Of a stretch of DNA of 23,883 bases, positions 1,959-22,665 are shown in pieces. The translations under genes and the position numbers were made by a program. The stretch comes from PVC group bacterium (lineage in GTDB: Bacteria; Auribacterota; Erginobacteria; Erginobacterales; Erginobacteraceae): assembly GCA_043804695.1 (NCBI GenBank), contig JAZDIV010000062.1, positions 1-23,883 of the forward strand, written 5' to 3'. How positions within the stretch are numbered: the stretch's first letter is position 1; the number at the start of each line of letters is the position of its first letter. A model generated the notes under the pieces. The model worked only from the letters and a program-made list of their open reading frames with translations. It had not been told where the DNA came from and searched no databases.

Positions 1959-1981
1959 TTTGCCTGATTTTTATTCGCCCC

Positions 1982-2025
1982 ATCCCGGATTATTCATCCC
2001 GTACACGGGATGAATAATCCGGGAT
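1982..2025. repeat. Perfect inverted repeat, 21-bp arms, 2-nt centre
   Basis: ATCCCGGATTATTCATCCCGT-AC-ACGGGATGAATAATCCGGGAT; the 12-mer CCCGGATTATTC recurs at 45-56. Confidence 0.9.
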
Positions 2026-2092
2026 ATCAATTGTCGTTCAAAACGTTACACTTGGCAATCCCGGTCATGCGACTACCGCAGACTGTTCTTCC

Positions 2093-4021: not shown

Positions 4022-5562
4022 TTCTTTTTCCGGCAGGATGCTGCTTCTTCGGAATCAGACCGATCGGTCGGATCAGTCGGATCGGTCGTATTATAGTTCT
4101 TTCCCATCCCTAATTTTTTCAACACCTCGAAATACAGCGCGCCGGTCTCGGCGGCAGCTTTCTCTTCCCCCAGCGCTCTCTGCGCGCGGGCTTTCAGGAG
4201 GTAGGAGTACGCCATGGCCGGATTTAAAGCTATCGCCCGGTCGCAGAGAGAGACTGTTTCAGGGTATCGCCCGGAACGGAAGGCGTGGTCGGCCAGCATG
4301 TGGTAGATCAGGTCGCTCCCGCCCTGCTGACGGAGAGCCTCGTTCCAGAGCGTTCCGCCATCACGCCAGAACCGGCAGCGATACCCGGTGCCGACAGCCA
4401 GGAAGACGGCGATCATAAAGCCGGAAAGGATAATCACCGCCTTGAGGCGTTTCACTTCCCCTGCCCGGGACAACAGGCCGCTGAAACCTCCGCTTATCAG
4501 GTAACCGGCCGCGGCCAGGGGAAGATACATAAACCGGTTGGCGGCAACCTCGATCCCGGCGAAGGGGATGAGGCGGAGGACGGGCAGGAGAGTGACTATA
4601 AAAAAACCGGTGCCGAAGAGAATATCACGGTTCTTTCCCCGGTTAGCGGAGAGCCAGACGGCCAGTAAACAAACCAGGAGCACGGAACCCGCGACCGAAA
4701 CATCAAAGAAGGCTACTCTCGCCGGGAAAAGATAAACCGGGGAGAGCTGAACCGGCAGCAGGACCCGGATAACGTAAAATCCCAGGTTCCGGAAAAAGAG
4801 GAGCACGTTTTCACCGGACAGGCCGAGATGAGCGGCGCTTCCCGGATAGCGGGCGGTCTGCATCATCAGCGCGGGAACCCCAACGGCCAGAGCGAGGATG
4901 AAGAACGGAAGCAGGACGATCCAGTCTTTCTTCAATAATCGCCGGCGGAAGCAGGAGAGCCAAAGCAGTATTACCGGCGGCAGGGTCACCGCGGTGGTCT
5001 TGCAGAAAAGAGAAAGGATGAAAAAGATGATCGAGATGAGATAGAAGCGGGCCGATTGCCGGTTATGATAAAAGATGAAGGTTATTAAAGCGAGGAGGTA
5101 GAAAAACGCGAAGAGAAGATCTTTCCGGGCCGATATCCAGGCCACCGCCTGGACCTGGAGAGGATTGATCTCAAAGAACAGCGCCCCCGCCAGGGCCGCC
5201 GGGAGGTTTCTCCCGAGCAGGAACAGCAGAAAGAATACCAGCAGGGTGTTCGCCAGGTGCAGGAAGAGGCTATGAAGGTGATAAACGGCGGGCTGCAGGC
5301 CGAAAAGCCCGTATTCAACCGAGAAGAGCGCCGTCACCAAAGGGTGGTATTCACTGACCACCCGGGAGCGGAATATCTCCACCGTGTTCCGGAAAGACAC
5401 CTCCCGGACCAGGGGGTTCGCGAGAAGCTGGGCGGGGTCGTCCCAGTTGGTGAACCCGTTCCGGAGCACGGGGAAAAAAGCCGACGCTCCCGCCGCCAGC
5501 AGAACGAACACACCGGCCCAGATATAACATCTTTTATTCCGGGCTGTATTTTTCAAGCTCAT
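4018..5562 (-). CDS. TMTC-like GT-C glycosyltransferase with short TPR region
   Basis: FTNWDD, YHPL, YHLHSLFLH, AVAWISARKD, NRFMYLP, AIALNP; start moved to ATG at 5562 (MSLKN...) because the track's longer start runs through REPs and overlaps the RAYT. Confidence 0.8.
   Translation of the reverse strand: MSLKNTARNKRCYIWAGVFVLLAAGASAFFPVLRNGFTNWDDPAQLLANPLVREVSFRNTVEIFRSRVVSEYHPLVTALFSVEYGLFGLQPAVYHLHSLFLHLANTLLVFFLLFLLGRNLPAALAGALFFEINPLQVQAVAWISARKDLLFAFFYLLALITFIFYHNRQSARFYLISIIFFILSLFCKTTAVTLPPVILLWLSCFRRRLLKKDWIVLLPFFILALAVGVPALMMQTARYPGSAAHLGLSGENVLLFFRNLGFYVIRVLLPVQLSPVYLFPARVAFFDVSVAGSVLLVCLLAVWLSANRGKNRDILFGTGFFIVTLLPVLRLIPFAGIEVAANRFMYLPLAAAGYLISGGFSGLLSRAGEVKRLKAVIILSGFMIAVFLAVGTGYRCRFWRDGGTLWNEALRQQGGSDLIYHMLADHAFRSGRYPETVSLCDRAIALNPAMAYSYLLKARAQRALGEEKAAAETGALYFEVLKKLGMGKNYNTTDPTDPTDRSDSEEAASCRKKK
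4062..4088. repeat. Three tandem 9-mers GATC(G/A)GTCG in the gene's 3' end
   Basis: gatcggtcg gatcagtcg gatcggtcg; read as TDPTDPTD in the C-terminal tail. Confidence 0.75.
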
Positions 5563-5566
5563 TGCT

Positions 5567-5669
5567 GTGGGAGGGTTTTTTAAGCCCGATCCCACGGCCC
5601 GGCCAGATCGGGGTTGAAAACCCCTCCCACAAGGCCGGGCCACTGTGGGAGGGCTTTTTAAGCCCGATC
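5567..5669. repeat. REP cluster (BIME-like) downstream of RAYT, 3 REPs
   Basis: 5567-5591(+) and 5645-5669(+) GTGGGAGGG(C/T)TTTTTAAGCCCGATC; 5606-5630(-) GTGGGAGGGGTTTTCAACCCCGATC. Confidence 0.9.
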
Positions 5670-6157
5670 TATTCGAGATTAAATTTGCATCTCCAGTAAG
5701 GATACTCAGATGGCTTTTCAACCAACCCTTTTCTAACCGGGTTATAATAGCAATATAAGATTATCTGACGCAGAGATTCTTCTTTTCTAATACAATGGTC
5801 ATAATAACCTTCCTGCCATAATGCGCCTTCCCGGTTCCATAATTTATTTATCTCTCTCGACGAATATCTTTTCCAAGAGTGCATTAATTGCTCAAGTGTA
5901 TTTATTCCTTTAAGTGCAGCTACAAGATGCACATGATCGGGCATTATCATCACGCAAAATAAATCCCATTTATCATTATCTTCCAGCCATTGAATTGAAT
6001 TAAATATAATTTCACAGCTGGCGCTGTCTTTAAATATGCTCTGTTGATCCCTGGTACGCGTTGTTAAAAAATACGCGTGGCCACTGCCAGACCATCGACC
6101 CTGGCGAAGCCAGCTTGAACCTTTCTCCGGATGGCGTTTTTGATTATTATTGTTCAT
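5669..6157 (-). CDS. rayT: REP-associated tyrosine transposase (RAYT, Y1 HUH family)
   Basis: 162 aa; YFLTTRT, HuH motif MPDHVH, WQEGYYDHCIR, YCYYNPVRKGLV; REP clusters on both sides; visibly AT-rich versus neighbours. Confidence 0.92.
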   Translation of the reverse strand: MNNNNQKRHPEKGSSWLRQGRWSGSGHAYFLTTRTRDQQSIFKDSASCEIIFNSIQWLEDNDKWDLFCVMIMPDHVHLVAALKGINTLEQLMHSWKRYSSREINKLWNREGALWQEGYYDHCIRKEESLRQIILYCYYNPVRKGLVEKPSEYPYWRCKFNLE

Positions 6158-6176
6158 TGATTAGATTCTCTTTCTA

Positions 6177-6344
6177 ATCGGGGTTGGAAACCCCTCCCAC
6201 AATCGCCCCTCGCTAATCGGGGTTTGGAAACCCCTCCCACAAGGCCGGACCACTGTGGGAGGGCTTTTTAAGCCCGATCCCAGGGCCCGGCCAGATCGGG
6301 GTTGGAAACCCCTCCCACAATCACCCAGTAAAAACCCCTCCCAC
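6177..6344. repeat. REP cluster upstream of RAYT, 4 REPs plus a partial
   Basis: 6177-6200(-), 6216-6240(-), 6255-6279(+), 6294-6318(-), partial 6331-6344; two variants with stems GGGGTT/AACCCC (A) and GGGCTT/AAGCCC (B). Confidence 0.9.
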
Positions 6345-6371
6345 GGATATGGCACTTAAAATTAAGGACGA

Positions 6372-8153
6372 TTACTTGGCGGCGGACAGGTTTTGCCGGG
6401 CGGATTCCAGGTTCTGGTCCAGTTCCAGCGCTTTACGCCAGCAGCGGCGGGCGTCCTCTCCCCTGCCCCGGTTGGCGTAGATTACTCCCAGGTGGTCGTA
6501 GCCGATCGCGAAATCGGGATTAAGATAAACGGCTTTCCGGGCGTACTCTTCCGCTTCCTTCCACTGCCCCTGAGAGGCGTGGAAGCCCGCCAGATGATCG
6601 TAGATGACATGATCGTAGGGGGTGAGTTCAAGCGCCCGGCGGAATGCATCCAGGGCCACGTCGTACTTCCGTTGGAAAACATATATCTTTCCCAGTTCAT
6701 AGGCGGCGGGAGCATAATCAGGGTTGGCCCCGGCCGCGAGCAGAAGGGTTTTCACCGATTCCTCCTCCATCCCCCGTTCCCAGAGGGCGAGCCCCAGGTT
6801 GGTGAGGATAACCGCCCGGTACTCATCCGGAGGTCGGCTTTCCAAGGCCTTCCTGAACTCCGCTTCGGCCACGGCTGGTTTGCGGCCGGACAGGTGAAGG
6901 CTGCCCAGGTTATTGAGGGCGGTAGCGCTGAGGGGTGATGTCCGGAGGACATCCTCCCAGAAAAGGCGGGGATCGCTCCAGAGGAAATTTTCCATCCGGA
7001 TCAGCACCCCCCAGCAGACAAAGAGCAGAACCAGGCAGATGACCGATATGATTCGGGCGGATGCGTTTTTAAACCATCCCCAGGTTTTGATGATGAGAAC
7101 AGCCGCAGCCAAACTGAAACCGGCCAGGGGCAGGTAGAGATACCGGTCGGCCGCCAGGCGGGGCTGGTTGATGGCATTGGCTACCGGGAAGAGGGCGAGG
7201 ATGAACCATCCCCAGCCAAGCAGCAGAAGCCGCGACCGCCGGACGCAGCTGAGGATGATCATCGCCCCGGCCAGGGCGAGGGGAAAAAGAAAATTCTCCG
7301 GAAGGGCGAAGACCCCGTGAGAGAGGGGATACACGTAATCAAGGCAGAGGTTGACGGGAAGAACGGCCACCCGGAGATAATGGAGATAGGTGGCGGCAAC
7401 GGCATTCACCGGGCCCAGCTCTTTTCCGGTTGAAATCATCATCCAGCCTTCCTTCTCCAGGAGGAAGAACCGGACAATCACCCAGGCCAGGCTGATGGCG
7501 ATAAACCCCAGATAGAATCCCCTCCGGCGAGTGACCCCGGGAAAGCGCTCGACCAGAAACTGCAGGGCCAGCCAGAGGGGCAGTACCAGGGCCGGTTCCT
7601 TGCTGGCCAGGGCCAGCAGGTAGAAGACAAGTGAAAGAACGGTCCAGGCCCAGGGCCGCCGGGGGGACCGGGCCGCCCGGGTGGCGGCGATCAGGCTGAG
7701 CATAAACCAGAAGAACATCAGCGGGTCGTCCAGGAACGATACACAAGTGATGGTCTCAACGTGCGCCGGGTGGAGTGCGAAGAGGGCCGATGCCAGGAGG
7801 GAAACGGCGGAGCCGGCGTTCAGCAAACGCAGGTAGCAGAACAGGAGGATGACATTAACCAGATGGAGAAGCAGCTTGAAGAGGTGGTAGCCCCAGGGGT
7901 TGAGCCGCCAGAATGCGTACTGGATAAAATAAAAGAGAACGGTGACCGGTCGGAACCGCTTGGGTGAAAGCTTGTAATATTCGGACGTGAAGAGGCGGGG
8001 GATATAGGCGGGGTTCTTGATCAGGGCGCTCTCAACGATCTGATTGGCGTCATCGTAAATAAAAGGGACTTGAAAGGAGTTGCCGTAGGCGGCGACAGTC
8101 GCCAGGCCGATCAGCCCCAGACAGATCCATTCTTTTTTAAGATACCGGATCAT
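6372..8153 (-). CDS. TMTC-like GT-C glycosyltransferase with TPR repeats
   Basis: 593 aa; FIYDD, FRP, YHLFKLLLH, ALHPAHVE, SKE, ADRYLYLP; about five TPRs at the C-terminus. Confidence 0.85.
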   Translation of the reverse strand: MIRYLKKEWICLGLIGLATVAAYGNSFQVPFIYDDANQIVESALIKNPAYIPRLFTSEYYKLSPKRFRPVTVLFYFIQYAFWRLNPWGYHLFKLLLHLVNVILLFCYLRLLNAGSAVSLLASALFALHPAHVETITCVSFLDDPLMFFWFMLSLIAATRAARSPRRPWAWTVLSLVFYLLALASKEPALVLPLWLALQFLVERFPGVTRRRGFYLGFIAISLAWVIVRFFLLEKEGWMMISTGKELGPVNAVAATYLHYLRVAVLPVNLCLDYVYPLSHGVFALPENFLFPLALAGAMIILSCVRRSRLLLLGWGWFILALFPVANAINQPRLAADRYLYLPLAGFSLAAAVLIIKTWGWFKNASARIISVICLVLLFVCWGVLIRMENFLWSDPRLFWEDVLRTSPLSATALNNLGSLHLSGRKPAVAEAEFRKALESRPPDEYRAVILTNLGLALWERGMEEESVKTLLLAAGANPDYAPAAYELGKIYVFQRKYDVALDAFRRALELTPYDHVIYDHLAGFHASQGQWKEAEEYARKAVYLNPDFAIGYDHLGVIYANRGRGEDARRCWRKALELDQNLESARQNLSAAK

Positions 8154-8180
8154 CGGTTGCCGTTATCCCCCATCAGCCGA

Positions 8181-8246
8181 ATCGCGGCCCGACAGAGTCG
8201 GGCAAGCCGGATGTTTACCCCGATATTTTTTCGGGGCCGCTCCCCC
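8181..8246 (-). repeat. Expanded branched REP-like element
   Basis: GGGGGA-GCGG-[two hairpins]-CCGC-GAT; homologous to 14265-14336. Confidence 0.7.
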
Positions 8247-8311
8247 GGACCCGGAGATTTTACCGGGGGAGGCTTTCCAGGCCCGCTTTACCTGACTTCC
8301 GGCTTCTGACT

Positions 8312-10063
8312 CTACTTCTTCACCGATTCCAACCCCCGCCGCGCCCGGCGGGAACCGGGGTTCAGTTCCAGGGCTTTTCTGAAGGCATCCCCGGCCTCCG
8401 TCCAACGGCCCTGTTTCATGGCCGTCAGCCCCTTCCACTCCTGGAGGAAGGCGGGGCGGTTGACCTCCCGGTCCCGCCGCATATCGGGCGTCTTGATATT
8501 GACCAGGATCGCCAGCGCCAGTAGAAGCAGGAGATCGCGGCCCAGGACCGCCCATCGCCTCTCCCGGGCCCGGCGGCAGAGCTGCCGGACGGCGGCGGCG
8601 GCAAAGATCAAGAGCACGGGAGCGACGGCCAGGCGAAACCGCGGGATGACGTAGATCAGGAGAGACGAGATCAGGTACGAGGCCAGGTAGAGGTAGAGGA
8701 TCGGACCCGCGGCCCGCGGCCGGGCGATGATGACCCCCAGCAGGGCGATGGGCATGAGAATCGCCGGGGCGATGAAAGGGAAGATCCGGGCGTGATTCGC
8801 CCTCTCCATCACTTCCGGGACATCGTGCGGCTCGTACCCGTTCGCCAGCGCCAAAAGCTTCTTCCCCAGAAGCCGCAGATAGCGCCCGGGGTGTTGACGG
8901 ATGAAAAGGAGCCCCTCCTGGAACCAGAAAGCCGAACCTTCCCCATGTTTCAGGTCCCGGCCGGTTCTCTCCCGGGCGATCTCCAGACTGAAGAGATGCT
9001 CCAGGTAACTGAGCTTCCCGTCCCCCGGGCGGGCGTAATAGGCGATGGTCCGCTCCTCCAGTTCGGGGGGAGGGCTGAAGTCAAATCCCATCGCGCGCGG
9101 GTTGTTGCCGCTGTAAAAGACCCAGCCCCCGCTGGCCGTCACCGGGATAAATTCGCCGCTGTTGGCGTAATTGAAAAGCGTTACAGGAAGGACAACCAGG
9201 GCAACCGGAATCAGGAGAAGGAAGATTCGTCGGATCCTGGTTCCCCATTTTCCGCCGATCGGTTGGCCTGCCACAACCCTGTGGGAGGGCTTTATAAGCC
9301 CGATTTCCCAGCCACTGTGGGAGGGGTTTCCAACCCCGATTCTCAGCCTGGCCGAATCGGGGTTAGAAACCCCTCCCACAATTCGCTTCGCCGAATCGGG
9401 GTTGGAAACCCCTCCCACAATTTGCCCGGCGGGATCGGGGTTGGAAACCCCTCCCACATTTCGCCGCCGCGAAACCCCCGGCATCAAAGATATAGGGGCC
9501 CCGGAATTCACTACCAAATATGGAATCACAAGGAGAAGGAAGATAACGGCATTGGGCCGCGAGATGATGCTTAAACCAATAAAGAGACCGGCGCCGGCAA
9601 TCCAGGATGCCTTTCCCCCGCTCCCGGCCGGGACGAGGCAGATGAGCGCCGCCAGGTTAAAGGTTACCACCCAGATCGCCGGGAGAAAGCTCGTTCCGTA
9701 GATGACAAACGGCCCATAGAAAACCGCGGCCAGGGCGGCGATATAACCGACCTGGCAATTGAAGCAGAGCCGCCCCAGCCGATAAATAAGCCAGCAGTTG
9801 AACGCCCCCAGGAACGCCTGCAGGATCTGCAGATCAAGAATATTACGGCCCGTCCATTGCCCTGCTGCCAGGAAAACGATGTAGAAAGGACTGGAATAAA
9901 ACACCTCAATCTGAGGAGTGATCACGCCCTGGAGTCTGAGCGCCAGTTCCCAGTACTTGAAAAAATATACCAATGGATCAAAAATATAAAAAAGCGCCGA
10001 CAGCTGTACAGCCAGCGCCAGGAGGAATATCAACAAGGGATATAAATTTTTATGCGCGTTCAT
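8312..10063 (-). CDS. GT39/ArnT-like membrane glycosyltransferase with C-terminal TPR and in-frame REP insertion
   Basis: 583 aa; FYSSPFY, SRPN, GGWVFYSGNNP, PRFRL, ALELNPG; contains VGGVSNPD x3 translated from REPs. Confidence 0.78.
   Translation of the reverse strand: MNAHKNLYPLLIFLLALAVQLSALFYIFDPLVYFFKYWELALRLQGVITPQIEVFYSSPFYIVFLAAGQWTGRNILDLQILQAFLGAFNCWLIYRLGRLCFNCQVGYIAALAAVFYGPFVIYGTSFLPAIWVVTFNLAALICLVPAGSGGKASWIAGAGLFIGLSIISRPNAVIFLLLVIPYLVVNSGAPISLMPGVSRRRNVGGVSNPDPAGQIVGGVSNPDSAKRIVGGVSNPDSARLRIGVGNPSHSGWEIGLIKPSHRVVAGQPIGGKWGTRIRRIFLLLIPVALVVLPVTLFNYANSGEFIPVTASGGWVFYSGNNPRAMGFDFSPPPELEERTIAYYARPGDGKLSYLEHLFSLEIARERTGRDLKHGEGSAFWFQEGLLFIRQHPGRYLRLLGKKLLALANGYEPHDVPEVMERANHARIFPFIAPAILMPIALLGVIIARPRAAGPILYLYLASYLISSLLIYVIPRFRLAVAPVLLIFAAAAVRQLCRRARERRWAVLGRDLLLLLALAILVNIKTPDMRRDREVNRPAFLQEWKGLTAMKQGRWTEAGDAFRKALELNPGSRRARRGLESVKK
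9281..9457. repeat. Five REPs inside a coding sequence
   Basis: 9281-9304(+,B), 9317-9340(+,A), 9356-9379, 9395-9418, 9434-9457(-,A); spacings 36, 39, 39, 39 bp. Confidence 0.92.
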
Positions 10064-10066
10064 ACA

Positions 10067-11644
10067 TTAAAATATCTCCTCCTCCCCGTTGAAATGGGGA
10101 GGAGGAGATATTTTACGGTAGATGAATTGCGGGCGCCAGGGATATCCGGTCACCGGGTAAAATACCGGGGCATCTCCGAAGATCGTTCCCGTCCTTGCGT
10201 AGCGGCTCTTCAGCAGCCCCGGGAACCAGTCCTCCCGATCGAGGATGATATAGTCATATCTGCCTTCCCGGATCGCCCTTTCAAACTCTTTCAGCCAGAG
10301 CCGGGCGGGGTCCCCTTCCCGGTCTTTCATGGCCAGCAATAGATCGAGGACCGCGGTCCAGTGGGCGGACGATTCCTTCCCGGCCAGTCGCGGCAGGTAT
10401 CCGTGAAAAGGGAGCAAAACATCTCCCTCCACGCTTTTTATATATGCGATCAGGATGTCACCGGCCTGCCGGTCGGTATCCCGGGGGATACGGGCGGCCG
10501 GAAGATAGCCAAGCATGATGAATTGAACCGCCAGGCAGAGGCCCACCGCCGGCCCGGCGATGACCGATCCCCTACCCTTCCCGGCGGATACTCTCCCCCA
10601 CGTCCACCCGCAAAGGAGCGCAAAGGCGAACGCCGCGGGAAGCAGTGTGTTGACATAGCTGTTTACGTTACCCCTTCCCACCAGGCTGACCAGGAATAGA
10701 CTCGCCCCCAGGAGATAATAGAGCATCCCCGGGACTCCCTCCCGGAGCGGCCGGCGGTCTTTCAGGAGAAGCAGCGGTGAGACCAGGCTGAGCCCGAACA
10801 TCACGGGGAACGTTCCGATGATATCCCCGTACAGAAAATCACGGACCTGGTCCATCCGGATGGCATGCCGGGAGGAGAGGAGGAAAACGTAATAGACATA
10901 CCAGCCTCCGTAACACGCATTCAGGAGAAGGGTACCGCCGCCCGCGAAGAGCGCCAGGGCTCCCAGGTAGAGGAGAAACCGTTTCCATCCGGCAGAGATA
11001 TAGTAGACCCCGATCGCCAGGGCCGGGGCCAGCGCCACCTGCTTGGTAAAAAAGGCGGCGGAGAGCAGCACCGCGGTTAGAATGGGCGCCCAGAGGCCGG
11101 AATCGCGTCGACCGGCAACAAAAGCTCCGAGCGCGATCCAGAAGATGAAAAGGCTGTCCACCCGGGCGATATCCATCCAGGAGCCGGTCGCCCGGTAGGC
11201 GGCCGCGAATAACCCGGCGGAAAGAACCCCCGCCGAAACCAGGTTTGTCTCCCGCTTAATAATAGCGTAGAGGAGAACCATGGTTCCGAAAGAAGCCAGA
11301 AGAGAGACCAGGCGGGGCGCTAAAAACCCCAGGCCGAAGATGCGCATCGCCGCGGCGCTCAGCAGAAAATAGAGCGGCGGGTAAATAAAGGGGACGTACT
11401 GGAGATCCGGCTCACGATAAAGGGGGCTGCCGTTCAACAGCTGCCCGCATTCATCGACAATCGCCCCTTCCATCCATTCCAGTTCATAGGGATAGGCAAT
11501 CCGGTGAAGAGCGGTCCAGAGGTAGGCGGCGATGGCCAGGGCGGAGAGAAGAATGAGGATGTGACTGAGGATGGAAAGGAGACGGGAAAAAAATTTGGGG
11601 CGAAGGCTGTATTGGTTATAGAATGGTTGTGGCTTGGTAGCCAT
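10067..11644 (-). CDS. ArnT/GT39-like GT-C glycosyltransferase
   Basis: 525 aa polytopic; YPYELEWMEG, YPPLY, ARVD, FFTKQ; first ~16 codons resemble the neighbouring transposase N-terminus. Confidence 0.78.
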   Translation of the reverse strand: MATKPQPFYNQYSLRPKFFSRLLSILSHILILLSALAIAAYLWTALHRIAYPYELEWMEGAIVDECGQLLNGSPLYREPDLQYVPFIYPPLYFLLSAAAMRIFGLGFLAPRLVSLLASFGTMVLLYAIIKRETNLVSAGVLSAGLFAAAYRATGSWMDIARVDSLFIFWIALGAFVAGRRDSGLWAPILTAVLLSAAFFTKQVALAPALAIGVYYISAGWKRFLLYLGALALFAGGGTLLLNACYGGWYVYYVFLLSSRHAIRMDQVRDFLYGDIIGTFPVMFGLSLVSPLLLLKDRRPLREGVPGMLYYLLGASLFLVSLVGRGNVNSYVNTLLPAAFAFALLCGWTWGRVSAGKGRGSVIAGPAVGLCLAVQFIMLGYLPAARIPRDTDRQAGDILIAYIKSVEGDVLLPFHGYLPRLAGKESSAHWTAVLDLLLAMKDREGDPARLWLKEFERAIREGRYDYIILDREDWFPGLLKSRYARTGTIFGDAPVFYPVTGYPWRPQFIYRKISPPPHFNGEEEIF

Positions 11645-11646
11645 TG

Positions 11647-11822
11647 AACTTTCTCCCCTGCCGCGTAAGGCGGCAGGGGCCGTTTGTTATTTTTAGTGCT
11701 TGGTGGTAGCTTTTAAACTTTCTCCCCTGCCGCGCAAGGCGGCAGGGGCCGTTTGTTATTTTTAGTGCTTGGTGGTAGCTTTTAAACTTTCTCCCCTGCC
11801 GCGCAAGGCGGCAGGGGCCGTT
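11647..11822. repeat. 69-bp-period tandem repeat with three 38-bp palindromic cores
   Basis: AACTTTCTCCCCTGCCGCGYAAGGCGGCAGGGGCCGTT at 11647, 11716, 11785 with identical 31-bp linkers; a near-identical fourth core at 12833-12870. Confidence 0.92.
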
Positions 11823-11827
11823 GTTTA

Positions 11828-12033
11828 GACCCCCGTGGACTTGTGCCACGGGTGAATCAGTTCAGCAGCTGCCAGCCCTGCTCCCGGCCAGACCCCTGCC
11901 GGCTTGTCCGGCAGGTGAATCAGTTCACATGCTAAAAGCCCGTCCCCCCTCATAAGACCTCCGTGGCCTTGGCCCCCCCCGAGACTGCGAAGCAGTTTTT
12001 CGGGGTGCCACGGGTGAATCAGTTCAGCAGCTA
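11828..12033. repeat. Second-family palindromic repeats in opposite orientation, left flank of Y1 transposase
   Basis: CCCGTGG..TTG.GCCACGGGTGAATCAGTTCAGCAGCT and CCCCTGCCGGCTTGTCCGGCAGGTGAATCAGTTC; 11893-12033 is directly repeated at 12938-13045. Confidence 0.85.
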
Positions 12034-12830
12034 CCTTCTGACAGCCCCCATTGTATATTCCCCGAACGTCCCAACGTAGTAATTATATTCCCAGATACGA
12101 CGTTGCCCCATTAAATAGGCCAGATTATTTTGAAATGCCAGCGCAATATCTTCCGGGGACTGCTCCACGTTGCCCCGGATCGCGATATGCAGATGATCCG
12201 GCATGGCGGAAAGAGTAGAGATTGTATACCCTTTCTTCTCCGCGGTCCGCCGACAGGCAGTGACTAAATCAGCACCTCTTCTGCCCCACCCCATCCGATA
12301 GCGTTCGGCAACAACCAGGACCAGGTGAAGGTTATACCAGTAACTGCCGCTTCCGGTCTGTACAGGTTGAGAAAGATCAACGGATGGATCGTTTATGGCC
12401 TCATTTTTCAGCTATTTTCGTAACGCATATCGGCCAATTTCTCCCGAACCAGTTGTTTCCCGATGTAAGCTTCGACAACCTCCCGGGTATTCCGTCCGAT
12501 ACTTCGAACCGCAAGTTTACGGCTGAACTGGACGGGTTTCCCGACCAGGCGAAAAGCGTGCTGGAGACGGCCCTTGACCCGGGTTGCCAGCAGGAGAGGT
12601 GAGATTTGCGGCGTGGCGCTGAATGTTAATAAGATCCGCCGATCATCCCAGAGATGCTCAAGGAGACGGAGACCGTCTTTTTCCCAGTGTCCGGTCAATT
12701 CCTCCAGGAAAGGATGCGATGGTTGCGGGGGGAAAGTGTCCCGGGAAGGCCATCCGGTCCAGCCGTAACGAAGGTGGTAGGCAGGATGGAGATTATGGGG
12801 GGTATAAAGTGGTTGCGGTTTTATAGCCAT
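12031..12830 (-). pseudogene. tnpA: Tandem two-domain IS200/IS605-like Y1 transposase with one frameshift near 12411
   Basis: Frame 1 (12830-12408) ends FSRKLAVRSIGRNTREVVEAYIGKQ...; second frame open 12411-12031 with YWYNLHLVLV, MPDHLH, WEYNYYVGTFG; adding one base gives ~266 aa. Confidence 0.8.
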
Positions 12831-12832
12831 TG

Positions 12833-13045
12833 AACTTTCTCCCCTGCCGCGTAAAGCGGCAGGGGCCGTTATGTTTGGTGCTATGTGTTAGCTGCTGAAC
12901 TTTCGCTCCCCGACGATAAACGTCGGGGGGGCGTAAACCCCTGCCGGCTTGTCCGGCAGGTGAATGAGTTCTTACGCTAAAGTCCCGTCCCCCCACCACA
13001 AGACCCCCGTGGCCTTGCGCCACGGGTGAATCAGTTCAGCAGCTA
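12833..13045. repeat. Right-flank palindromic repeat block of the Y1 transposase
   Basis: Same units, order and orientation as the block at 11647-12033. Confidence 0.85.
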
Positions 13046-13089
13046 TCAAGAGCCCCCCGGACACCTGCCGGCAAACCCCATCACTTTTA

Positions 13090-13144
13090 CCCGCCGAAGC
13101 TTCAGCGAAGGCGGGCCATTATTCCACCACTCCATCACTCCATT
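13090..13144. repeat. Short palindrome plus degenerate 8-mer array overlapping a stop codon
   Basis: CCCGCCGAAGCTTCAGCGAAGGCGGG at 13090-13115, then cattattc caccactc catcactc. Confidence 0.6.
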
Positions 13145-15287
13145 GTATTTCATACACCACCATCTTGGGGAAGGTGTTGGCGACCTCCCGGTAATGGACG
13201 CGGTAGATCTCCGGGCGCTGCATCATGCCGAACAAGGGCCGGAGCCCGAGCCGCGGGTCGCCGAGTATCCCGAGGTTCTCGAAGATCCAGCCGGGGGTGG
13301 TCTGGAGTTCGACCATCGCCAGGTAGGCGGCCCCCCGTTCTTTCAGGTAGTCGACCACCCGTCCTTCCCGGAGGTAGCCGGCGAAATCACGATCCACCAG
13401 CCCCCCCAGGTCGATAACCTCGGTCCGGGGGGAGAAATATTTCAAGGCCCCGATATCAAAGGCGGCCAGGCGGCTCTGTTCGGGGAGCTCCCGGTCGATC
13501 CGGCGGGCCACGGCGACATGGACATCGTTGATGTGCCGGACGGAAGATGAATACACTTTTCTCCACTTCAGGGTGGAACCGAGATCGAGGAGAATGATCG
13601 CGGCCAGAAGAACAGTCGGCAAAACTCCGGGCCGGGCTCTGATCCGGCCCCCGCCGGGACCGGCGGCCCGGACCAGCCAGCAGGCGGCCGGAAGGAAGAG
13701 CATAATCCAGAAGAGGAGAAAGTTGATCGCCTGGTAACGGCCGGCCTGGCTCGGGCTGGGGAGCATGACGATATACACCAGGTTGTGCCCGGCCGCCCAG
13801 AGCAAGAGGAGGAACAGACCCGAGATGCGTCTTCTTCCCTTCCGGGCATTCTGAAGGATAAGCCGGAGCGAGCAGAGCGCCAGCAGACCGGCCCCGCCCC
13901 AGAAGACAGCCAGCAAAGGCCCCTGCTGAAAAGCGGGCGGGAGGAGGCTGATGGTCAGTCCGTACCCCCAGAGTCTGAGATAGGCGAGCGGCCCCCTCCC
14001 CCCGGCCGGGACCGAGAGCCACTTCCTTCCGGAAAAGGTGGTCGGGAGAAGAGACCCGCTTACGCAAAGGTTCTTCAGCAGCTCGAGAATTAAAAAAAGA
14101 GCCGGGATGAGGAGAAGGGGAAGGATGGGGCGCAGAGCGCAGAGCGCAGAGCGCAGAGCGCCTGGCGCAGAGCGCAGAGCGCCTGGCGCAGAGCGCCCGG
14201 GGCCGGTTTTCTGACCGCTGTGGGAGGGCTTTTCAAGCCCGATTCCCCCGACATGCTGTCGGGGATCGGGGCCCCGACAGATACTGTCGGGGCAAGTTAA
14301 AAATTTACCCCGAAATATTTTCGGGGCCCCTCCCACATCCGGCCTTCCCGCCTCCCCGGATGCGTCCCGCCGGGACTCGATAATCGCGGCATAGACCAGG
14401 GCTATCCCCCAGAGGACGATGCCCTCAATCCGGGTAATCAGCAAAAAGCCGAGCGCCCCCCCCGCCCACCGGTATCGGCCCCGGCTCAAACAGAAAATGG
14501 CGAAGACTCCGATCGCCAGAAAGGCGGTTGTCTCCATCCCCGAGAGGCTGTACCAGATCAGCGGGCCGCAGAGGAGAACGAGGAGCGATATAAAAAAAGC
14601 CAGCAGGTGGGGGAGCATGGCGTAAGGCGCATAGGGCATAGAGCATGGCGCATAGGGCATAGAGCATAGAGCATAGCGCCCTAGCCCGATTCCCGGCTTC
14701 CCCCGGATCGAGGTTACAAACCTCTCCCACAATCGGCCGGCACCGAGGGAGGACAGCCCTGGCCCAATTCCCGGCCCCGCTGGATCGGGGTTGGAAACCC
14801 CTCCCACAATTACCCCTCGCTGATCGGGGTTGGAAACCCCTCCTACAATCGCCCCTCGCTGATCGGGGTAAAAAACCTCTCCCGCGGATAACAGAAATCG
14901 GTAGACAAGGAGCCCCGTCATTGCCGCGAGGGAGAACTGGGCGGCGCACCCTAAAAAGATGCTCCAGCCGACAACGGAAAAACCAAAGGACCGGCCCAGG
15001 CTGAGGAGAAGGAACCAGAGGGTGCTGGTAAAGCCGATCGAGGGCCGGCCGGGGTTAAAAGCGGTCTCCCCGCCGGAGACAAAATTCCGGGCAAAAACGG
15101 CATAGATCCAGCTGTCGTCGAGGGGGAAACCGGGGGCATTGCCGGCCAGAAACGGGAAGGCACCGGGGAGGAGCGGCGCGATAAAGGACCAGATAATCGC
15201 AAATTCAACCAGGAGGAGCAAAAAGATCCGGAATCGCTTTTTTCCCGCAGTCCCCACTTCTCTGACTTGCGCAAGCAGTCCTCTCAC
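13119..15287 (-). CDS. GT-C-like membrane glycosyltransferase (AftB-like motifs) with two in-frame repeat-derived insertions
   Basis: 722 aa; LDDSWIYAVFARN, FNPG, GFTSTLW, SGMET, RIEG, DIGALKYFS, DLGGLVD; GTGA overlap with upstream gene. Confidence 0.72.
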   Translation of the reverse strand: MRGLLAQVREVGTAGKKRFRIFLLLLVEFAIIWSFIAPLLPGAFPFLAGNAPGFPLDDSWIYAVFARNFVSGGETAFNPGRPSIGFTSTLWFLLLSLGRSFGFSVVGWSIFLGCAAQFSLAAMTGLLVYRFLLSAGEVFYPDQRGAIVGGVSNPDQRGVIVGGVSNPDPAGPGIGPGLSSLGAGRLWERFVTSIRGKPGIGLGRYALCSMPYAPCSMPYAPYAMLPHLLAFFISLLVLLCGPLIWYSLSGMETTAFLAIGVFAIFCLSRGRYRWAGGALGFLLITRIEGIVLWGIALVYAAIIESRRDASGEAGRPDVGGAPKIFRGKFLTCPDSICRGPDPRQHVGGIGLEKPSHSGQKTGPGRSAPGALRSAPGALRSALCALRPILPLLLIPALFLILELLKNLCVSGSLLPTTFSGRKWLSVPAGGRGPLAYLRLWGYGLTISLLPPAFQQGPLLAVFWGGAGLLALCSLRLILQNARKGRRRISGLFLLLLWAAGHNLVYIVMLPSPSQAGRYQAINFLLFWIMLFLPAACWLVRAAGPGGGRIRARPGVLPTVLLAAIILLDLGSTLKWRKVYSSSVRHINDVHVAVARRIDRELPEQSRLAAFDIGALKYFSPRTEVIDLGGLVDRDFAGYLREGRVVDYLKERGAAYLAMVELQTTPGWIFENLGILGDPRLGLRPLFGMMQRPEIYRVHYREVANTFPKMVVYEIQWSDGVVE
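14130..14192. repeat. Heptamer array, 9 units GCGCAGA/GCGCCTG
   Basis: 9 x 7 = 63 bp read directly, plus a degenerate tenth unit. Confidence 0.9.
14220..14336. repeat. Intragenic REP-B, micro-hairpin and expanded REP
   Basis: 14220-14243 GTGGGAGGGCTTTTCAAGCCCGAT; hairpin 14246-14264; branched REP 14265-14336. Confidence 0.85.
14613..14675. repeat. Heptamer array, 9 units G(A/C/G)GCAT(A/G)
   Basis: gagcatg gcgtaag gcgcata gggcata gagcatg gcgcata gggcata gagcata gagcata; encodes YALCSMPYAPCSMPYAP. Confidence 0.85.
14707..14885 (-). repeat. Intragenic cluster of four REP-A copies
   Basis: 14707-14730 variant, 14784-14807, 14823-14846 (GTAG), 14862-14885 degenerate; last three at 39-bp period. 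Confidence 0.88.
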
Positions 15288-15505
15288 ATCCCCCAGTGAT
15301 TGTATATGTAATAGGCCATGAACAGGAAAAAGAGCCCGACTGTGGTCAGGATCACTCCCACCGAAATCCGGTACTTCAACGTCTTGTGGTCGGTTGAGAC
15401 AATCTGGTTAAGCAGCGAGCTCAATTTCACCAGCGCCCCGGGCGCGATCAGAAACATGACCCCCGAGCTCAGGGCGACAAAACCGACCAGTATAAAAGCA
15501 GTCAT
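15284..15505 (-). CDS. Small two-TM membrane protein
   Basis: 73 aa, two hydrophobic helices; stop/start overlaps with both neighbours. Confidence 0.75.
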   Translation of the reverse strand: MTAFILVGFVALSSGVMFLIAPGALVKLSSLLNQIVSTDHKTLKYRISVGVILTTVGLFFLFMAYYIYNHWGM

Positions 15506-17808
15506 CTCCGGCTCCTTTTCATCGCTTTGGTAAGCACCCTGCCTCCGAAATCACCCTTGTTCCCTTCCTTCTCCTCCATCGTACTCCCGTCTTCTTCTCC
15601 CTCCGCTTCCGGCTGGGGAGGTTCCGGCTCCTTAGCGCTCTTGTAAAGATACGACCGCACCTGGTCGTCCTCGACATAGCGGACGTCCTCGAGCGCGTCG
15701 GGAGGAGACTTCTCCAGCATGAGCTTCTCGTAAGGGGAGATCTCGAAGTCTTCCGTAACGATCCGGGCGGTGATGAAGATCAATATGTTTGTTTTTTCCA
15801 GCTTGGTATGTTCTTCCTTGAAGAAGTAACCCAGGATCGGGATATCTCCCAGGAGGGGGATCTTGTCCTCCTCATCAACAGAACGGCTATCGATCAAGCC
15901 TCCAATAACGATGGTATCTCCGTCCGGAACGGTCACATTGGAATCGGTACCCCTGGTGTTGATGACGGGATAGGCGGAATCTACGAACCCTTGACCGTAA
16001 ACAAATGCCGGGGCCCACCCGTCCTGGATGCTGACCTCGGGGTGGATGATCATATTGATTCCCAGCGTTCCGTCCCCCATTCTTCTTACCTGCGGTATTA
16101 CCGCGAGAAGGATGCCGATCTCCTTCCATTCCTCGAGCGAGGTCCCCCCCACCCCGTATTCGCCGACCTCCGTCTTGAGGATCGGGAATTCCTTGCCGAT
16201 GAATATCTTCGCCCGGTAGTTCTCATGGACGAGAATCCGGGGATTGGAGAGGAGGACGATATTCGAATCCGTCTTCATCGCGGAGAGCATCAGGTTGAAG
16301 TCGGCCGCGTTCAGTATCGCGCTGTAGGTCTCGCTGGCGGTTGAAAGCTTGGTCAGGGTATCGGAGATGCCGTAGAGATAATCATCGAAATTGCGCTTGG
16401 TCTCGGAATCTTCGATCCGGGTGTAGAATTCATCGGCCCAGCCGGATGTCCGGACGTCGTTGCCGACATTCGCCCGCCAGGCGACGTTCTGCTGGAAGGG
16501 GCCGCCGGTTTCACTGTCTGGTATGGTGTAATCATACAGGTCGGGGATCTTGATCGATCCCCCCCCGCTTGTGGGATAGCCGCTCCCGGAGTAACTCATC
16601 CGGCCGGACGTATCACCATCTTTCGCCTCTCCCCGGTCATATTCCTTGGTATCCTCGCCCTCCACCCAGGTTCTTTCCTTCTCGTATCCACTCCCCCAGT
16701 CATGGGTGTCTTTATCGGTAGAGTCCGATGTCCGCCGATAGCTCTTCCCCAGTATCGCCTGCATGTCATTTGCGCCGACGTTCCACTGGTTAAGCGCCTC
16801 CGTCCAGTTGATCCCGAGGCGGAACTCATGTTTGACCGGGACCTCCAGAATCTTGGCGTCGATCAGGATCTGACAGGGTTTCTTGTCGATCTCCTTGATT
16901 ACGGGGTCGAGCCGGTTGAGAACGGTGGCAATGTCCTGAATAATTAATGTCTTGGAGCGGCTAAATTCCTCTGCTTCCTCTCCCTGCATGGCAGCGATTT
17001 TGTCGGCCAGGCTCCATTTAAACCCCTTGAATTGCTGGGTTTTTAACACCATAACCTTCCCACGGGGTGAAAGCAGTGTCTGGATCGCCTCTTTGGCGTC
17101 GGTGGCATCGATATGCTGCAATTCGAAGACTTTTACCACCAGCGGCTCCGCCTGCTCCTCGGCCTGCCGCTTCTTCGCTTCCTCCATCGCCTTCTGGGCG
17201 CCGGCGGCCTCCCGGGCGGCGTCGGCCGTCGTCTCCGCCTGGATCTTCTCCAGCGAGGTCACCCGGAGGATATTCCCGCTTATCCGGTACCCCAATTCCA
17301 GATCCACCAGTATCGTCTGGAGCGCGTCGATGATCTTCACATCGGTAAAATCAACCGTGACCTTCCCCTGCACTTCCGGGGCCAGGGTCACGTTGAAGCC
17401 GTAGGCTTTGGCCAGGCTCCTCAGGACCACCCGGATGTCCTCATCAACGAATTTCAGGCTCCCCCGCTTCTCTAACTGCTCTTGCAGCGATAAACCGGCC
17501 GCGGCGGTCGGGGGAGCGATCGGCAGCTCTTCTTTCAGCGGGACGGGAGCTTCCACCGCGGGCGGTTCCGGGGTGATTTCTCCTTCGGGAGAGCCGGGGA
17601 TGAGATCGGCCGGAGGGAGATCGAGCCCGGCGGCCGGAGACTCCCCGGCCGGGGCCCCGTTCTCCCGCATCTCTTTTTTGATCTCCTCCATGGCCAGGAT
17701 CAACTCGTTGTCCATCGTCGCGGCGCCGTAAAGGAACGGGGGCGGAACCAGCATCATCGCCATCGAGAAGACCACCAGCAATATCGGCAGATCGGTTATC
17801 TTTTTCAT
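15502..17808 (-). CDS. pilQ: Outer-membrane secretin (PilQ/GspD family)
   Basis: Signal peptide, N0 (SLKFVDEDIRVVL...GKVTVDF), N3 (KVFELQHIDA), QILIDAKILEV, LSNPRI, GDTIVIGGLI, KIPLLGDIPILGYFF. Confidence 0.9.
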   Translation of the reverse strand: MKKITDLPILLVVFSMAMMLVPPPFLYGAATMDNELILAMEEIKKEMRENGAPAGESPAAGLDLPPADLIPGSPEGEITPEPPAVEAPVPLKEELPIAPPTAAAGLSLQEQLEKRGSLKFVDEDIRVVLRSLAKAYGFNVTLAPEVQGKVTVDFTDVKIIDALQTILVDLELGYRISGNILRVTSLEKIQAETTADAAREAAGAQKAMEEAKKRQAEEQAEPLVVKVFELQHIDATDAKEAIQTLLSPRGKVMVLKTQQFKGFKWSLADKIAAMQGEEAEEFSRSKTLIIQDIATVLNRLDPVIKEIDKKPCQILIDAKILEVPVKHEFRLGINWTEALNQWNVGANDMQAILGKSYRRTSDSTDKDTHDWGSGYEKERTWVEGEDTKEYDRGEAKDGDTSGRMSYSGSGYPTSGGGSIKIPDLYDYTIPDSETGGPFQQNVAWRANVGNDVRTSGWADEFYTRIEDSETKRNFDDYLYGISDTLTKLSTASETYSAILNAADFNLMLSAMKTDSNIVLLSNPRILVHENYRAKIFIGKEFPILKTEVGEYGVGGTSLEEWKEIGILLAVIPQVRRMGDGTLGINMIIHPEVSIQDGWAPAFVYGQGFVDSAYPVINTRGTDSNVTVPDGDTIVIGGLIDSRSVDEEDKIPLLGDIPILGYFFKEEHTKLEKTNILIFITARIVTEDFEISPYEKLMLEKSPPDALEDVRYVEDDQVRSYLYKSAKEPEPPQPEAEGEEDGSTMEEKEGNKGDFGGRVLTKAMKRSRR

Positions 17809-18284
17809 TTAAAATCCTCAGGCAGGGCGAGTATATAGGTTTGGCCGTCTTTTTCCAGCATAATCCGGTAAGTTTCCACATTTTTCAATAGATAACCTTC
17901 AAACTCCTCTCCCACCCCCACCGGCTCGCTGTTGATGATGGCGGCCCGGCCGGGGATGATCCCGGTCAGCTTGAAATCTTTCCAATCCTCCGGGCCCCGT
18001 TTGTTTTCCTTGACCGGCGGGGGGCGAAAGGGGTCCCTTTCCCAGGGCCCCTCGGCGATGGTCCGCTGTATCCCGAGCAGATTCTCGTCAAGAGGAGGAA
18101 GTTCACCGGGGGCCGATCCGGTAACATTCACTTTAACCGGAGCCTTAACCGGCGCCTCCTCCGTCGTTCCCCGGGGGGGCGCTTTCTTTTTTTTGGCGAC
18201 GGTGCTGAGGCTATTGTAAAGAATGAAACCCAGAACCGGGATCAGGATGCCAATAATGATGATCTCTTTCTTCTTCTTGTCCAC
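17805..18284 (-). CDS. PilP/GspC-like accessory protein
   Basis: N-terminal TM, WERDPF, FKLTGII, AAIIN...VGVGEEFEG; lies between pilO and secretin; GTG start at 18284 with GGAGG upstream preferred over track start 18368. Confidence 0.6.
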   Translation of the reverse strand: MDKKKKEIIIIGILIPVLGFILYNSLSTVAKKKKAPPRGTTEEAPVKAPVKVNVTGSAPGELPPLDENLLGIQRTIAEGPWERDPFRPPPVKENKRGPEDWKDFKLTGIIPGRAAIINSEPVGVGEEFEGYLLKNVETYRIMLEKDGQTYILALPEDFK

Positions 18285-18510
18285 TATTTTTTCCTCCGGA
18301 AAAAATAGATTATCGTTAATCAGAATGATGCTTGCACTTACATCGCCCAATAAAAAGTTATGCAACAATTCTGAGTTAATAAACCGGCGGCCAAACTGCC
18401 GGAAAAACTAAACCTTGGTCCCGGCTATTTTTTCCCTCCGGGAAAAAATAGATTTGAACTAATCCTATAACCGCGATCAATTTATGTTCGTTACAGCCAA
18501 CTGTTCTTAC

Positions 18511-18543
18511 CATAAACGAAGCAGTTTCACCGCTTCGTTTATG
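18511..18543 (-). terminator. Hairpin overlapping the pilO stop codon
   Basis: CATAAACGAAGC...GCTTCGTTTATG 12-bp arms; terminator function not established. Confidence 0.4.
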
Positions 18544-19099
18544 AGCCGTTGATCCGGCTCAGATATGTCGTCAGCTGCATCTCCACCCGGAGGTCGGAGC
18601 TGCCTTCTTTCCTGACCGCCGCGTTCTGGTCTTCGGTGATGGTCAGGCCGGTGATAAAGATAAACATCGGGGAAGTGGCAATGCTGTTCAGAAACTCCCC
18701 CAGCACTCGATAGGGGCAATACGCGATAATATCGATTTCATATACCCGCAAAGCGCTCAGTTCGTCTTCAACCTTTTTCTCGGCGGTGTCTCTCTTCGAG
18801 ATCTTTAGCTCCGCCTTCCGGGCGGCATCGGTAATCGTCTGGTAGACCAGCTCGATCGTTCGCGGGTACTGAACCTCCAGCCGCTCCAGCTTTTCGCGGG
18901 CGGCCGAGATCTCGGCCTGGACTCCGGGGAGGGCGGCCTGTTTCCCCTGGATTTCGGCGATCTGCCGGTCGAGCGCCTTCGCTTCCTCCTGCAGTCTCTC
19001 CAGCTTTCCCGAGACCGGGTCGTAGAAAGCAAACCGGAAGAGGACCAGGAGGAGGATAACCCCGAACAAAATGCTCAACACTTTCTGGGTGTAATTCAT
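18539..19099 (-). CDS. pilO: Type IV pilus PilO-like protein
   Basis: TM, coiled coil, then YRVLGEFLNSIATSPMFIFITGLTI ferredoxin-like pattern; ATG at 19099 preferred. Confidence 0.75.
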   Translation of the reverse strand: MNYTQKVLSILFGVILLLVLFRFAFYDPVSGKLERLQEEAKALDRQIAEIQGKQAALPGVQAEISAAREKLERLEVQYPRTIELVYQTITDAARKAELKISKRDTAEKKVEDELSALRVYEIDIIAYCPYRVLGEFLNSIATSPMFIFITGLTITEDQNAAVRKEGSSDLRVEMQLTTYLSRINGS

Positions 19100-19282
19100 T
19101 TTAAATTTGCTCGCTGGGCTCGCAAATTTATTGGACCATTGGATCAATCTTGCTCACAATAAAAAAAGATTGCTAACGTTTCTCGAATTAGTTTGTAGTC
19201 AACTATTCTTAACAAAACGGTAATCCCTTGTTGTCATCAAGCGCAGGCTGCGCATTTCGTTTTGGTTATTTTCCTTCGATAA

Positions 19283-19315
19283 TTTACTGACCGCAACTTC
19301 GTTGCGGTCAGTAAA
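19283..19315 (-). terminator. 15-bp perfect hairpin overlapping the pilMN stop codon
   Basis: TTTACTGACCGCAAC-GAA-GTTGCGGTCAGTAAA on the minus strand. Confidence 0.45.
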
Positions 19316-21179: not shown

Positions 21180-21390
21180 TATTCAAACCGCCCGCCCGGA
21201 TATAAATTAGCGCCTGCGGCGCTACTTGGTTACGGTTACGGTGACGAGGCCCGTTTCGTCTGCCGGTTACGGTTACGTGCGCCCAGCGAGGCGGCCGTTA
21301 CCATTACCCTCACCGATACGGGCATCGTTACCGTTGCCGTTACCATTTTTAAAATTCCCAAGCAGGAACTTAGCGCTTCGCGCTAACTTC

Positions 21391-21614
21391 GTAGCGGCGA
21401 CCTTCAGGTCGCCACTATCTGGCAGCCTAAAGAGGCTGTCCGACAATTCAGATTTTAGGCATTTTAGAGGTCATTGCGAGGAGCGAAGCGACGAAGCAAT
21501 CTCATCATTTTGGATAAGAGGTGGTTATGAATGAAAAAATAGATTGCTTCGCCCCTCCGGGGCTCGCGATGACATTTCAGGGGTTGTCGGACAGCCTCTA
21601 AAGGCTGCCGCTAC
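21391..21614. repeat. Inverted GTAG REP doublet (third REP family), second copy split by a MITE
   Basis: GTAGCGGCGACCTTCAGGTCGCC at 21391-21413; GGCAGCC-TAAA-GGCTGCCGCTAC split between 21421-21431 and 21599-21614. Confidence 0.85.
21432..21598. mobile_element. 167-bp MITE with 15-bp TIRs and TAAA target duplication
   Basis: GAGGCTGTCCGACAA (21432-21446) / TTGTCGGACAGCCTC (21584-21598); TAAA at 21428-21431 and 21599-21602. Confidence 0.88.
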
Positions 21615-22442: not shown

Positions 22443-22471
22443 TTTAAAATTTTTCTTCGAAAAATTTTAGT

Positions 22472-22500
22472 GGACCACCGACTGATTCAGTCGGTGGTCC
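22472..22500. repeat. Perfect palindrome with 14-bp arms upstream of parA
   Basis: GGACCACCGACTGA-T-TCAGTCGGTGGTCC. Confidence 0.8.
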
Positions 22501-22630
22501 GCTGGTTAAGCTAAACTAAATTGCACATCAATAATGATCAATTACCGCTACGTCGTGATATGTTGGACTCAAACTGATTCTCTAACCTTCATCAATCTGT
22601 CTTTATGACAAACAAAATAATACTATAACA

Positions 22631-22664
22631 ATAAATTTGCCCCGTTTTTGCGGGGCAAATTTAT
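22631..22664 (-). terminator. Probable intrinsic terminator after pilT
   Basis: ATAAATTTGCCCCG / CGGGGCAAATTTAT 14-bp arms immediately after the stop; T-rich tail on the minus strand. Confidence 0.6.
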
Positions 22665-22665
22665 A

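Follow-up and report, generated by a model that had tools for sequence, protein, structure and literature searches.

A Two-Domain Y1 Transposase-Like Protein with Complementary Halves, Associated with REP-Like Hairpins in PVC Bacteria: A Candidate Single-Chain RAYT-Like Enzyme

The window, meaning the whole stretch of 23,883 nucleotides that was analysed, carries on its minus strand a gene for two IS200-type Y1 transposase domains joined head to tail. The first domain possesses the helix with the tyrosine and has no HuH motif, and the second possesses HuH and ends just before the position of its own tyrosine. The TnpA transposases of the IS200/IS605 group are obligate dimers with domain-swapped active sites, in which the tyrosine helix swaps from a trans to a cis configuration. 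We consider it likely that the protein encoded here is a single-chain pseudo-dimer, similar in its way of life to the RAYTs and having one composite active site. The local copy of the gene is interrupted by a frame break.

Organization and Distribution of the Two-Domain Gene

The features of the gene and of its surroundings are collected in Table 1. The initial annotation placed a frameshifted gene at positions 12031-12830. These limits fitted exactly a pair of neighbouring minus-strand frames, between which the reading is broken by one base. The upstream frame stops at a TGA and the downstream frame contains a TAG, so that the change of frame must fall in the short interval between them. Since exactly one residue spans the break in the alignment to intact homologues, the simplest cause is a single missing base. 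When both pieces were aligned to the homologues, the latter were continuous across the position of the break. In the C-half frame, the first ATG, which is also the first canonical start, is located at 12294 on the minus strand.

Table 1. Features of the window (positions counted from its first letter)
Feature	Position	Strand	Remarks
N-half ORF	12408..12830	-	140 aa, ATG start, stop TGA 12408-12410; IS200-type Y1 domain without HuH, with Y-x-x-x-Q helix
C-half reading frame	12031..12411	-	Stop 12031-12033; IS200-type Y1 domain with HuH, ending before the Tyr position
Frame break	12411..12413	-	A single base absent compared with intact homologues; between TGA 12408-12410 and TAG 12412-12414
Tyr122 codon	12465..12467	-	Proposed nucleophile (Y123 in P0002 numbering); Y in 149/150; aligns to the ISDra2 TnpA Tyr helix
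Gln126 (Y+4) codon	12453..12455	-	Candidate metal ligand on the Tyr helix; Q in 150/150
R65-I66-L67 codons	12630..12638	-	Degenerate HuH-equivalent triplet of the N-half; opposite H-L-H in the in-register hhalign alignment
H-L-H (HuH) codons of the C-half	12187..12195	-	His in 146 and 148 of 150
GEY tyrosine codon of the C-half	12055..12057	-	Y in 146/150; rival nucleophile
REP-like array downstream of the gene	11635..12030	.	Repeat families D1-D4
Downstream units	11656, 11725, 11794	-	Pattern search
Downstream units	11831, 11894	+	Pattern search
Downstream covariance-model matches	11700-11754, 11769-11823, 11887-11941		
REP-like array upstream of the gene	12831..13060	.	
Upstream units	12842, 12907	-	
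Upstream units	12939, 13005	+	
Upstream covariance-model matches	12932-12986, 12998-13052		
Canonical RAYT P0271	5669-6157	-	NF047646 (REP_Tyr_transpos), 134 bits; HuH and Y-x-x-NP motif

The same layout was widespread in databases. Among 562 longer candidates, 149 proteins of at least 246 aa matched the N-half at E ≤ 0.001. The 120 matches listed were 262-320 aa long, covered 88-100% of the N-half with an identity of 49-76%, and carried a precomputed Y1_Tnp domain; many bore the name “REP element-mobilizing transposase RayT” (JGI), or “transposase” (NCBI). A HMMER search over 1.84 billion cluster representatives returned 340 sequences at E ≤ 0.001, with a full-length size of approximately 265 aa and many short fragments. 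In a species-level scan (185,579 species, one genome each), 295 of 329 pattern matches encoded a relative. Recurrence in 149 longer database proteins and in 295 genomic loci indicates that the two-half layout is not due to chance.

Most of the 80 loci that were kept bore the label of Planctomycetota or of another phylum of the PVC group (Verrucomicrobiota, Lentisphaerae/Victivallales, Kiritimatiellia and Auribacterota). Outside PVC, these 80 loci included two from Myxococcales and one each from Deltaproteobacteria, Thermodesulfobacteriota, Bradymonadales and Armatimonadetes. The matched frame was free of stops in 76 of them and contained one stop in the other four, so the fused form is the norm and the local copy a broken version of it.

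The gene was present once in its 2.97-Mb genome and in one or two copies in other genomes. Seven assemblies possessed two copies on different contigs (L011/L027, L034/L065, L032/L062, L035/L042, L061/L067, L051/L060 and L013/L046), sometimes with different hairpin stems. This suggests that a single genome can harbour paralogous pairs of enzyme and REP.

State of the Local Copy

A programmed frameshift was considered and rejected: no slippery site precedes the TGA, and the gene is uninterrupted in all five relatives that carry it, as well as in the 76 loci mentioned above. The break is therefore a mutation or an assembly error. We lean towards the first, a real and recent pseudogene. If the break is real, the REPs of this genome are now orphaned, or they are served in trans by two separate polypeptides. 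An assembly error, with an intact two-domain gene in the organism itself, is a lesser but substantial possibility: the genome is a MAG of 155 contigs, and the two halves contain no other stops and share 73-76% identity with intact homologues. Against it, the break precedes the TGA and lies outside the nearby A5 run, an atypical site for a homopolymer error.

The neighbouring genes of the 12031-12830 segment were glycosyltransferase-like. On one side, PMT_2-type glycosyltransferase paralogues and TPR membrane proteins were aligned in a row, and on the other side was a type IV pilus/secretin cluster (secretin, PilO, PilM, ParA-like ATPase and T2SSE ATPase), all on the minus strand (57-11644 and 15502-23733). 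A 722-aa ORF at 13119-15287, also on the minus strand, matched no Pfam family and contained short internal peptide repeats.

Active-Site Residues Are Split between the Two Halves

The distribution of the active-site residues was determined in an alignment of 150 family members with a mean column identity of approximately 41%. The strand and helix of the N-half end with Y122-I-G-K-Q126. As the initial annotation had claimed, this half possesses the Tyr helix and no HuH: the tyrosine was conserved in 149 members and the glutamine at Y+4 in all 150, and not one of the 150 had both HuH histidines in its N-half. At the equivalent position the family showed Q, L or R followed by a hydrophobic residue and a final Q (126 of 150). 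The ligand corresponding to the Y+4 residue in IS608 TnpA is, we presume, Gln131. The C-half presented the opposite situation. Its two HuH histidines were found in 146 and 148 of the 150 members, and its end falls one residue before the canonical Tyr position, again in agreement with what had been described from the local copy. Beyond the last strand, only about 10 residues form the tail of the C-half, and a tyrosine, unaligned, was present anywhere in this tail in six members out of 150. The N-half Tyr and Gln together with the two C-half histidines were found in 145 of the 150 members.

In the IS200/IS605 transposases, HuH and the catalytic Tyr are situated in the same domain of about 150 aa; in the two-domain family they are not. 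As the N-domain is devoid of HuH and the C-domain ends before its own Tyr, only one complete site per chain is possible. We propose that the site is a composite one, in which the tyrosine of the N-half would dock at HuH of the C-half.

Another tyrosine has to be considered, that of the GEY motif in the C-half, which could act as nucleophile, being nearly as conserved (146 of 150) as that of the N-half. The C-half would then be the whole enzyme, with HuH and the GEY Tyr in cis, and the N-half would be a degenerate scaffold or a DNA-binding domain which kept Y-x-x-x-Q for other reasons. Cis sites do exist in TnpAREP (PMC3479197), and the cis sites of IS608 TnpA can rejoin (PMC3597680). The position of the GEY Tyr speaks against this reading: it stands approximately seven residues short of the canonical place, in a loop that is followed by a helix stub of five residues; in the local sequence, the C-half ends seven residues past this tyrosine. 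In addition, near-invariance of the N-half Tyr and Gln in a family where the HuH of that half has gone from all 150 members is hard to reconcile with a purely structural helix. We therefore regard a C-half acting alone as improbable and retain the composite site.

Both Halves Adopt the Fold of IS200-Type Transposases

Two Pfam Y1_Tnp matches had been expected in the repaired gene, and two such stretches were indeed found in seven of seven full-length homologues. In the local sequence the C-half alone was matched (E 5e-7), and the N-half searched alone gave no Pfam family at E ≤ 1, so that its homology had to be established with profiles and folds. Alignment of the two halves with each other by hhalign was in register but weak (probability 16.5%, E 0.0015); they may have arisen by internal duplication or by the joining of two diverged genes. 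In a profile search of the PDB, the C-half matched residues 5-119 of the Sulfolobus IS200 transposase 2f4f, the helix of the N-half was aligned with the Tyr helix of ISDra2 TnpA, and IS608 TnpA was matched only weakly by the N-half taken as a whole (E 0.055).

The AlphaFold2 model of an intact close homologue, P0002 (267 aa, alignment of 150 rows), was obtained with a pLDDT of 96.3 and a pTM of 0.93, and showed the order b-a-b-b-a-b-a common to both halves. Its C-half (155-267) superposed on residues 9-131 of ISDra2 TnpA (2xm3) with Z 10.2 and an rmsd of 1.5 A over 112 residues, and on residues 5-126 of IS608 TnpA (Foldseek, VIA-align). Because the superpositions end at 131 and 126, the C-half stops one residue before Y132 of ISDra2 and Y127 of IS608, respectively. 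The local N-half modelled alone with AF2 reached a pLDDT of 87.5. Compared with 48,161 representative chains, it gave only two matches with Z ≥ 8, both to transposases of the IS200 family: 2ec2 of Sulfolobus tokodaii (Z 11.4, 99 residues) and IS608 TnpA 2vhg (Z 10.3), the latter over 113 residues that extend across the Tyr helix. The N-half thus adopts a Y1 fold, a point on which the pseudo-dimer reading depended. Neither half resembled E. coli TnpAREP (4er8) nearly as closely (Z 5.3 and 6.2). The region of the Tyr helix was modelled with a pLDDT of 68-77 in the local N-half alone against 97-98 in the full chain of P0002, two different sequences. Such a contrast between models would be expected if the Tyr helix packs on the C-half, and may be taken as an indirect hint in this direction.

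The two members tested against the NCBIfam models, P0002 and P0017, scored 53.2 and 49.7 bits with NF033573 (transpos_IS200), below the cut-off of 55, and neither gave a match to NF047646 at E ≤ 0.01.

With two Y1 folds and complementary residues in 145 of 150 members, the idea of a fused TnpA dimer with reciprocal loss was borne out in its architecture, and a single composite site is what this architecture would produce.

The Gene Is Surrounded by Dispersed REP-Like Hairpins

On both sides of the gene, arrays of REP-like units were observed (Table 1). The unit consists of an 8-bp stem starting with CC and a loop of five nucleotides (CTYGY or TTYAY), followed by a conserved 3' tail. In this tail, G stands at +2, AG at +7/+8 and T at +10/+11, and GCTA is frequently seen some 17-20 nt out. 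A simple pattern search found 233 units genome-wide against 10 in the block-shuffled genome, and 138 against none when the tail signature was included. A covariance model was built from 122 units, and 139 candidates were scored per genome; in the source genome, at least 127 of the 139 candidates matched. The units occur in hundreds without the gene and are spread over the contigs. A spacing of 65-69 nt was measured for 57 of 101 neighbouring pairs, and periodic arrays exist without any gene. Singleton REP units were sought in the source genome for the definition of element ends and target; 24 were usable, some of them false.

Within 1.5 kb of the two-domain gene there were nine units, against none in the vicinity of the four other Y1_Tnp genes checked among the six Pfam Y1_Tnp matches of the genome. 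The association was reproduced in the related loci: 75 of the 80 had a unit within 400 nt, a 51-fold enrichment, and units were present on both sides in 56 of the 63 loci having at least 300 nt on each side. Over the 80 loci, the density was 5.9 units per kilobase near the gene compared to 0.12 per kilobase beyond 800 nt. The orientation was mostly inverted around the gene, with 150 (+) and 40 (-) units upstream, and 125 (-) and 41 (+) units downstream. RAYTs are single- or low-copy Y1 genes flanked by REPs that are typically inverted and that are also scattered in many copies over the genome, and both aspects were observed here.

The stems varied between genomes with pairing kept, for example CCTGCCGG, CCGGCGGG, CCATCCGG and CCCACTGG. 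Positions outside the search filter were also conserved (-1 C in 118 of 122 units, -2 C in 109, +8 G in 105 and +10 T in 100). Several structural classes could be distinguished among the REP units of loci L003-L088 and of the local arrays (11635-13060). One was flanked by GACC...TGAA, another had three further co-varying pairs across an internal loop, (-3,+2), (-4,+3) and (-5,+4), and a third had a perfect stem of 10 bp. The GACC...TGAA class and the class with the extra pairs were seen side by side around the gene. In the REP unit by the stop codon of the gene (approximately 11944-12030), a second small hairpin seemed to be nested in the loop.

The distribution of gene and repeats was also compared in 41 relatives, which are related MAGs, so that the counts are descriptive only. 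Six of the six gene-positive genomes had matches to the REP model (from 12 to at least 127 each), and so did nine of the 35 gene-negative genomes, including all six gene-negative members of the same family. The gene was found in none of the 26 genomes without REP matches. The six members of the same family (G001-G006) showed 9-72 REP-model matches and no match to the two-domain gene. In such REP-positive, gene-negative relatives, which are MAGs with a completeness of 87-97%, either assembly or binning could have missed the repeat-flanked gene, or the REPs could outlive the enzyme.

The presence of hairpins on both sides raises the question of whether the gene is the transposase of an autonomous IS of the IS200/IS605 type, the hairpins being its left and right ends. 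The Y1_Tnp homology, the Y---Q motif of class 1 type and the subterminal position of the hairpins fit such an element. The copy numbers do not: one gene in 2.97 Mb stands against 233 units found by pattern, or at least 127 matched by the covariance model, the 65-69-nt arrays are periodic without any gene, and other genomes have only one or two copies of the gene, whose local neighbours are glycosyltransferase-like. An autonomous IS is consequently very unlikely, and the initial preference for a RAYT-like role, suggested from the local sequence, is reinforced by a single-copy gene flanked by dispersed hairpin repeats. A non-catalytic REP-binding pseudo-enzyme, for instance a regulator or a nucleoid factor, would explain why each of the ancestral active sites lacks one half. 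It is equally hard to credit, since 145 of 150 members retain all four residues needed for one full site, at approximately 41% mean column identity.

A Canonical RAYT in the Same Window

The window contains another Y1 gene, the canonical RAYT P0271, which served as a control. It is flanked on both sides, at 5566-5670 and 6177-6340, by a different family of palindromic repeats, whose 14-nt core was found in 28 exact copies and in 81 copies with at most one mismatch, over 38 contigs. One copy of this core is located inside the 722-aa ORF, near 14218. Since the repeats of P0271 differ from those of the two-domain gene, each Y1 gene sits in its own repeat family, and there are therefore two independent REP-enzyme systems 6 kb apart.

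Proposed Mechanism and Significance

We propose the following model for the intact protein. Two IS200-type domains are fused head to tail. The N-domain has lost HuH while keeping the mobile helix with the Tyr proposed as nucleophile and with Gln at Y+4, and the C-domain keeps HuH, ending one residue before its own Tyr position. A single site of the trans type would result, with the Tyr helix of one body placed over HuH of the other, as in TnpA dimers. The enzyme would bind the hairpin with the 8-bp stem of its cognate REP unit, approximately 67 nt long, on single-stranded DNA, and would nick near the hairpin via a 5'-phosphotyrosine intermediate. Rejoining to another 3'-OH could take place in the same site. 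New REP copies and tandem arrays may be seeded in this way, as proposed for monomeric TnpAREP.

On a wider scale, we slightly favour the view that the family is a widespread PVC class of REP-mobilising enzymes which arose from IS200-type TnpA by fusion and reciprocal loss, independently of the classical RAYTs, and which would generate arrays with a period of approximately 67 nt by nicking and rejoining in one site. REP enzymes with one site would then have been reached a second time, by a separate route, which bears on the origins of REP/RAYT systems. To our knowledge, REP biology in PVC bacteria is almost unstudied, and these bacteria would gain a defined enzyme-repeat pair. The hairpin stems that co-vary between genomes are useful for deriving recognition rules.

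Comparison with Known Systems

No two-domain Y1 protein with complementary halves was found in the openly accessible full texts searched, in PMC3733652, or in PMC6006769 and its Table 1. The systems closest to it are the IS200/IS605 transposases, an engineered heterodimer of one of them, the RAYTs and the class 3 Y1 transposases.

With the TnpA of IS608, ISDra2 and the Sulfolobus IS200, the protein shares the fold of each half (Z 10-11), the Y---Q helix motif, which is the signature of subclass 1.1 (PMC6006769, Table 1), and DHxH. It would also share the logic of the trans site, predicted from the arrangement of the halves, and presumably the recognition of subterminal hairpins on single-stranded DNA. 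In the IS608 TnpA dimer, HuH and the tyrosine of each site come from different monomers, the tyrosine being Tyr127 on helix D (PMC3597680). Here, by contrast, two domains are carried by one chain of approximately 266 aa, with one predicted site instead of two, and the helix swap from trans to cis that IS608 uses for strand transfer would bring the tyrosine to a domain without HuH. The gene is single-copy and is not a multi-copy IS. The two-domain protein thus departs from IS200-type TnpA both in its defining one-domain site and in the IS life style.

A laboratory version of this arrangement exists. In the IS608 TnpA H64A/Y127F heterodimer of He et al. 2013 (PMC3597680), one part has Tyr without HuH and the other HuH without Tyr, which leaves one trans site; the heterodimer cleaves DNA and does not rejoin it. 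A single site therefore does not guarantee strand transfer. The heterodimer was a two-chain construct, whereas the two-domain protein is a natural single chain, widespread and conserved, and such persistence would imply a complete and useful reaction. The natural protein poses the question of whether a single trans site can both cleave and rejoin.

E. coli TnpAREP is monomeric. Besides Y115 and HuH it has two more ligands on helix D, among them N119 at Y+4, which coordinates the metal, and the paper describing it considers strand transfer inside a single site, into which another 3'-OH would enter (PMC3479197). Like the RAYTs (PDB 4ER8; NF047646), the two-domain family combines a single- or low-copy Y1 gene, inverted and dispersed REPs, and one predicted site per polypeptide. 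It differs from them in falling outside their clade, as judged from the absence of an NF047646 match in the two members tested compared to the 134 bits of P0271, in the motif (Y-x-x-x-Q, or Y-I-x-x-Q, instead of Y-x-x-x-NP), and in a fold match to 4er8 that is far weaker than that to IS200-type TnpA. The single site of TnpAREP corresponds to the monomerisation of one domain, and that of the two-domain family would correspond to duplication or fusion followed by reciprocal loss.

The class 3 TnpAY1 described by Quentin et al. 2018 (PMC6006769) are found mainly in Planctomycetes, and resemble the two-domain family in this respect as well as by their Q-type Y motif and atypical flanking secondary structures. 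They differ in being single domains of 178 aa in which NHVH and YV..EQ are present together, and the two-domain layout appears in no subclass of Table 1 of that work. Our interpretation is that the two-domain protein works like a RAYT while standing outside that clade, and that it descends from an IS200-type TnpA.
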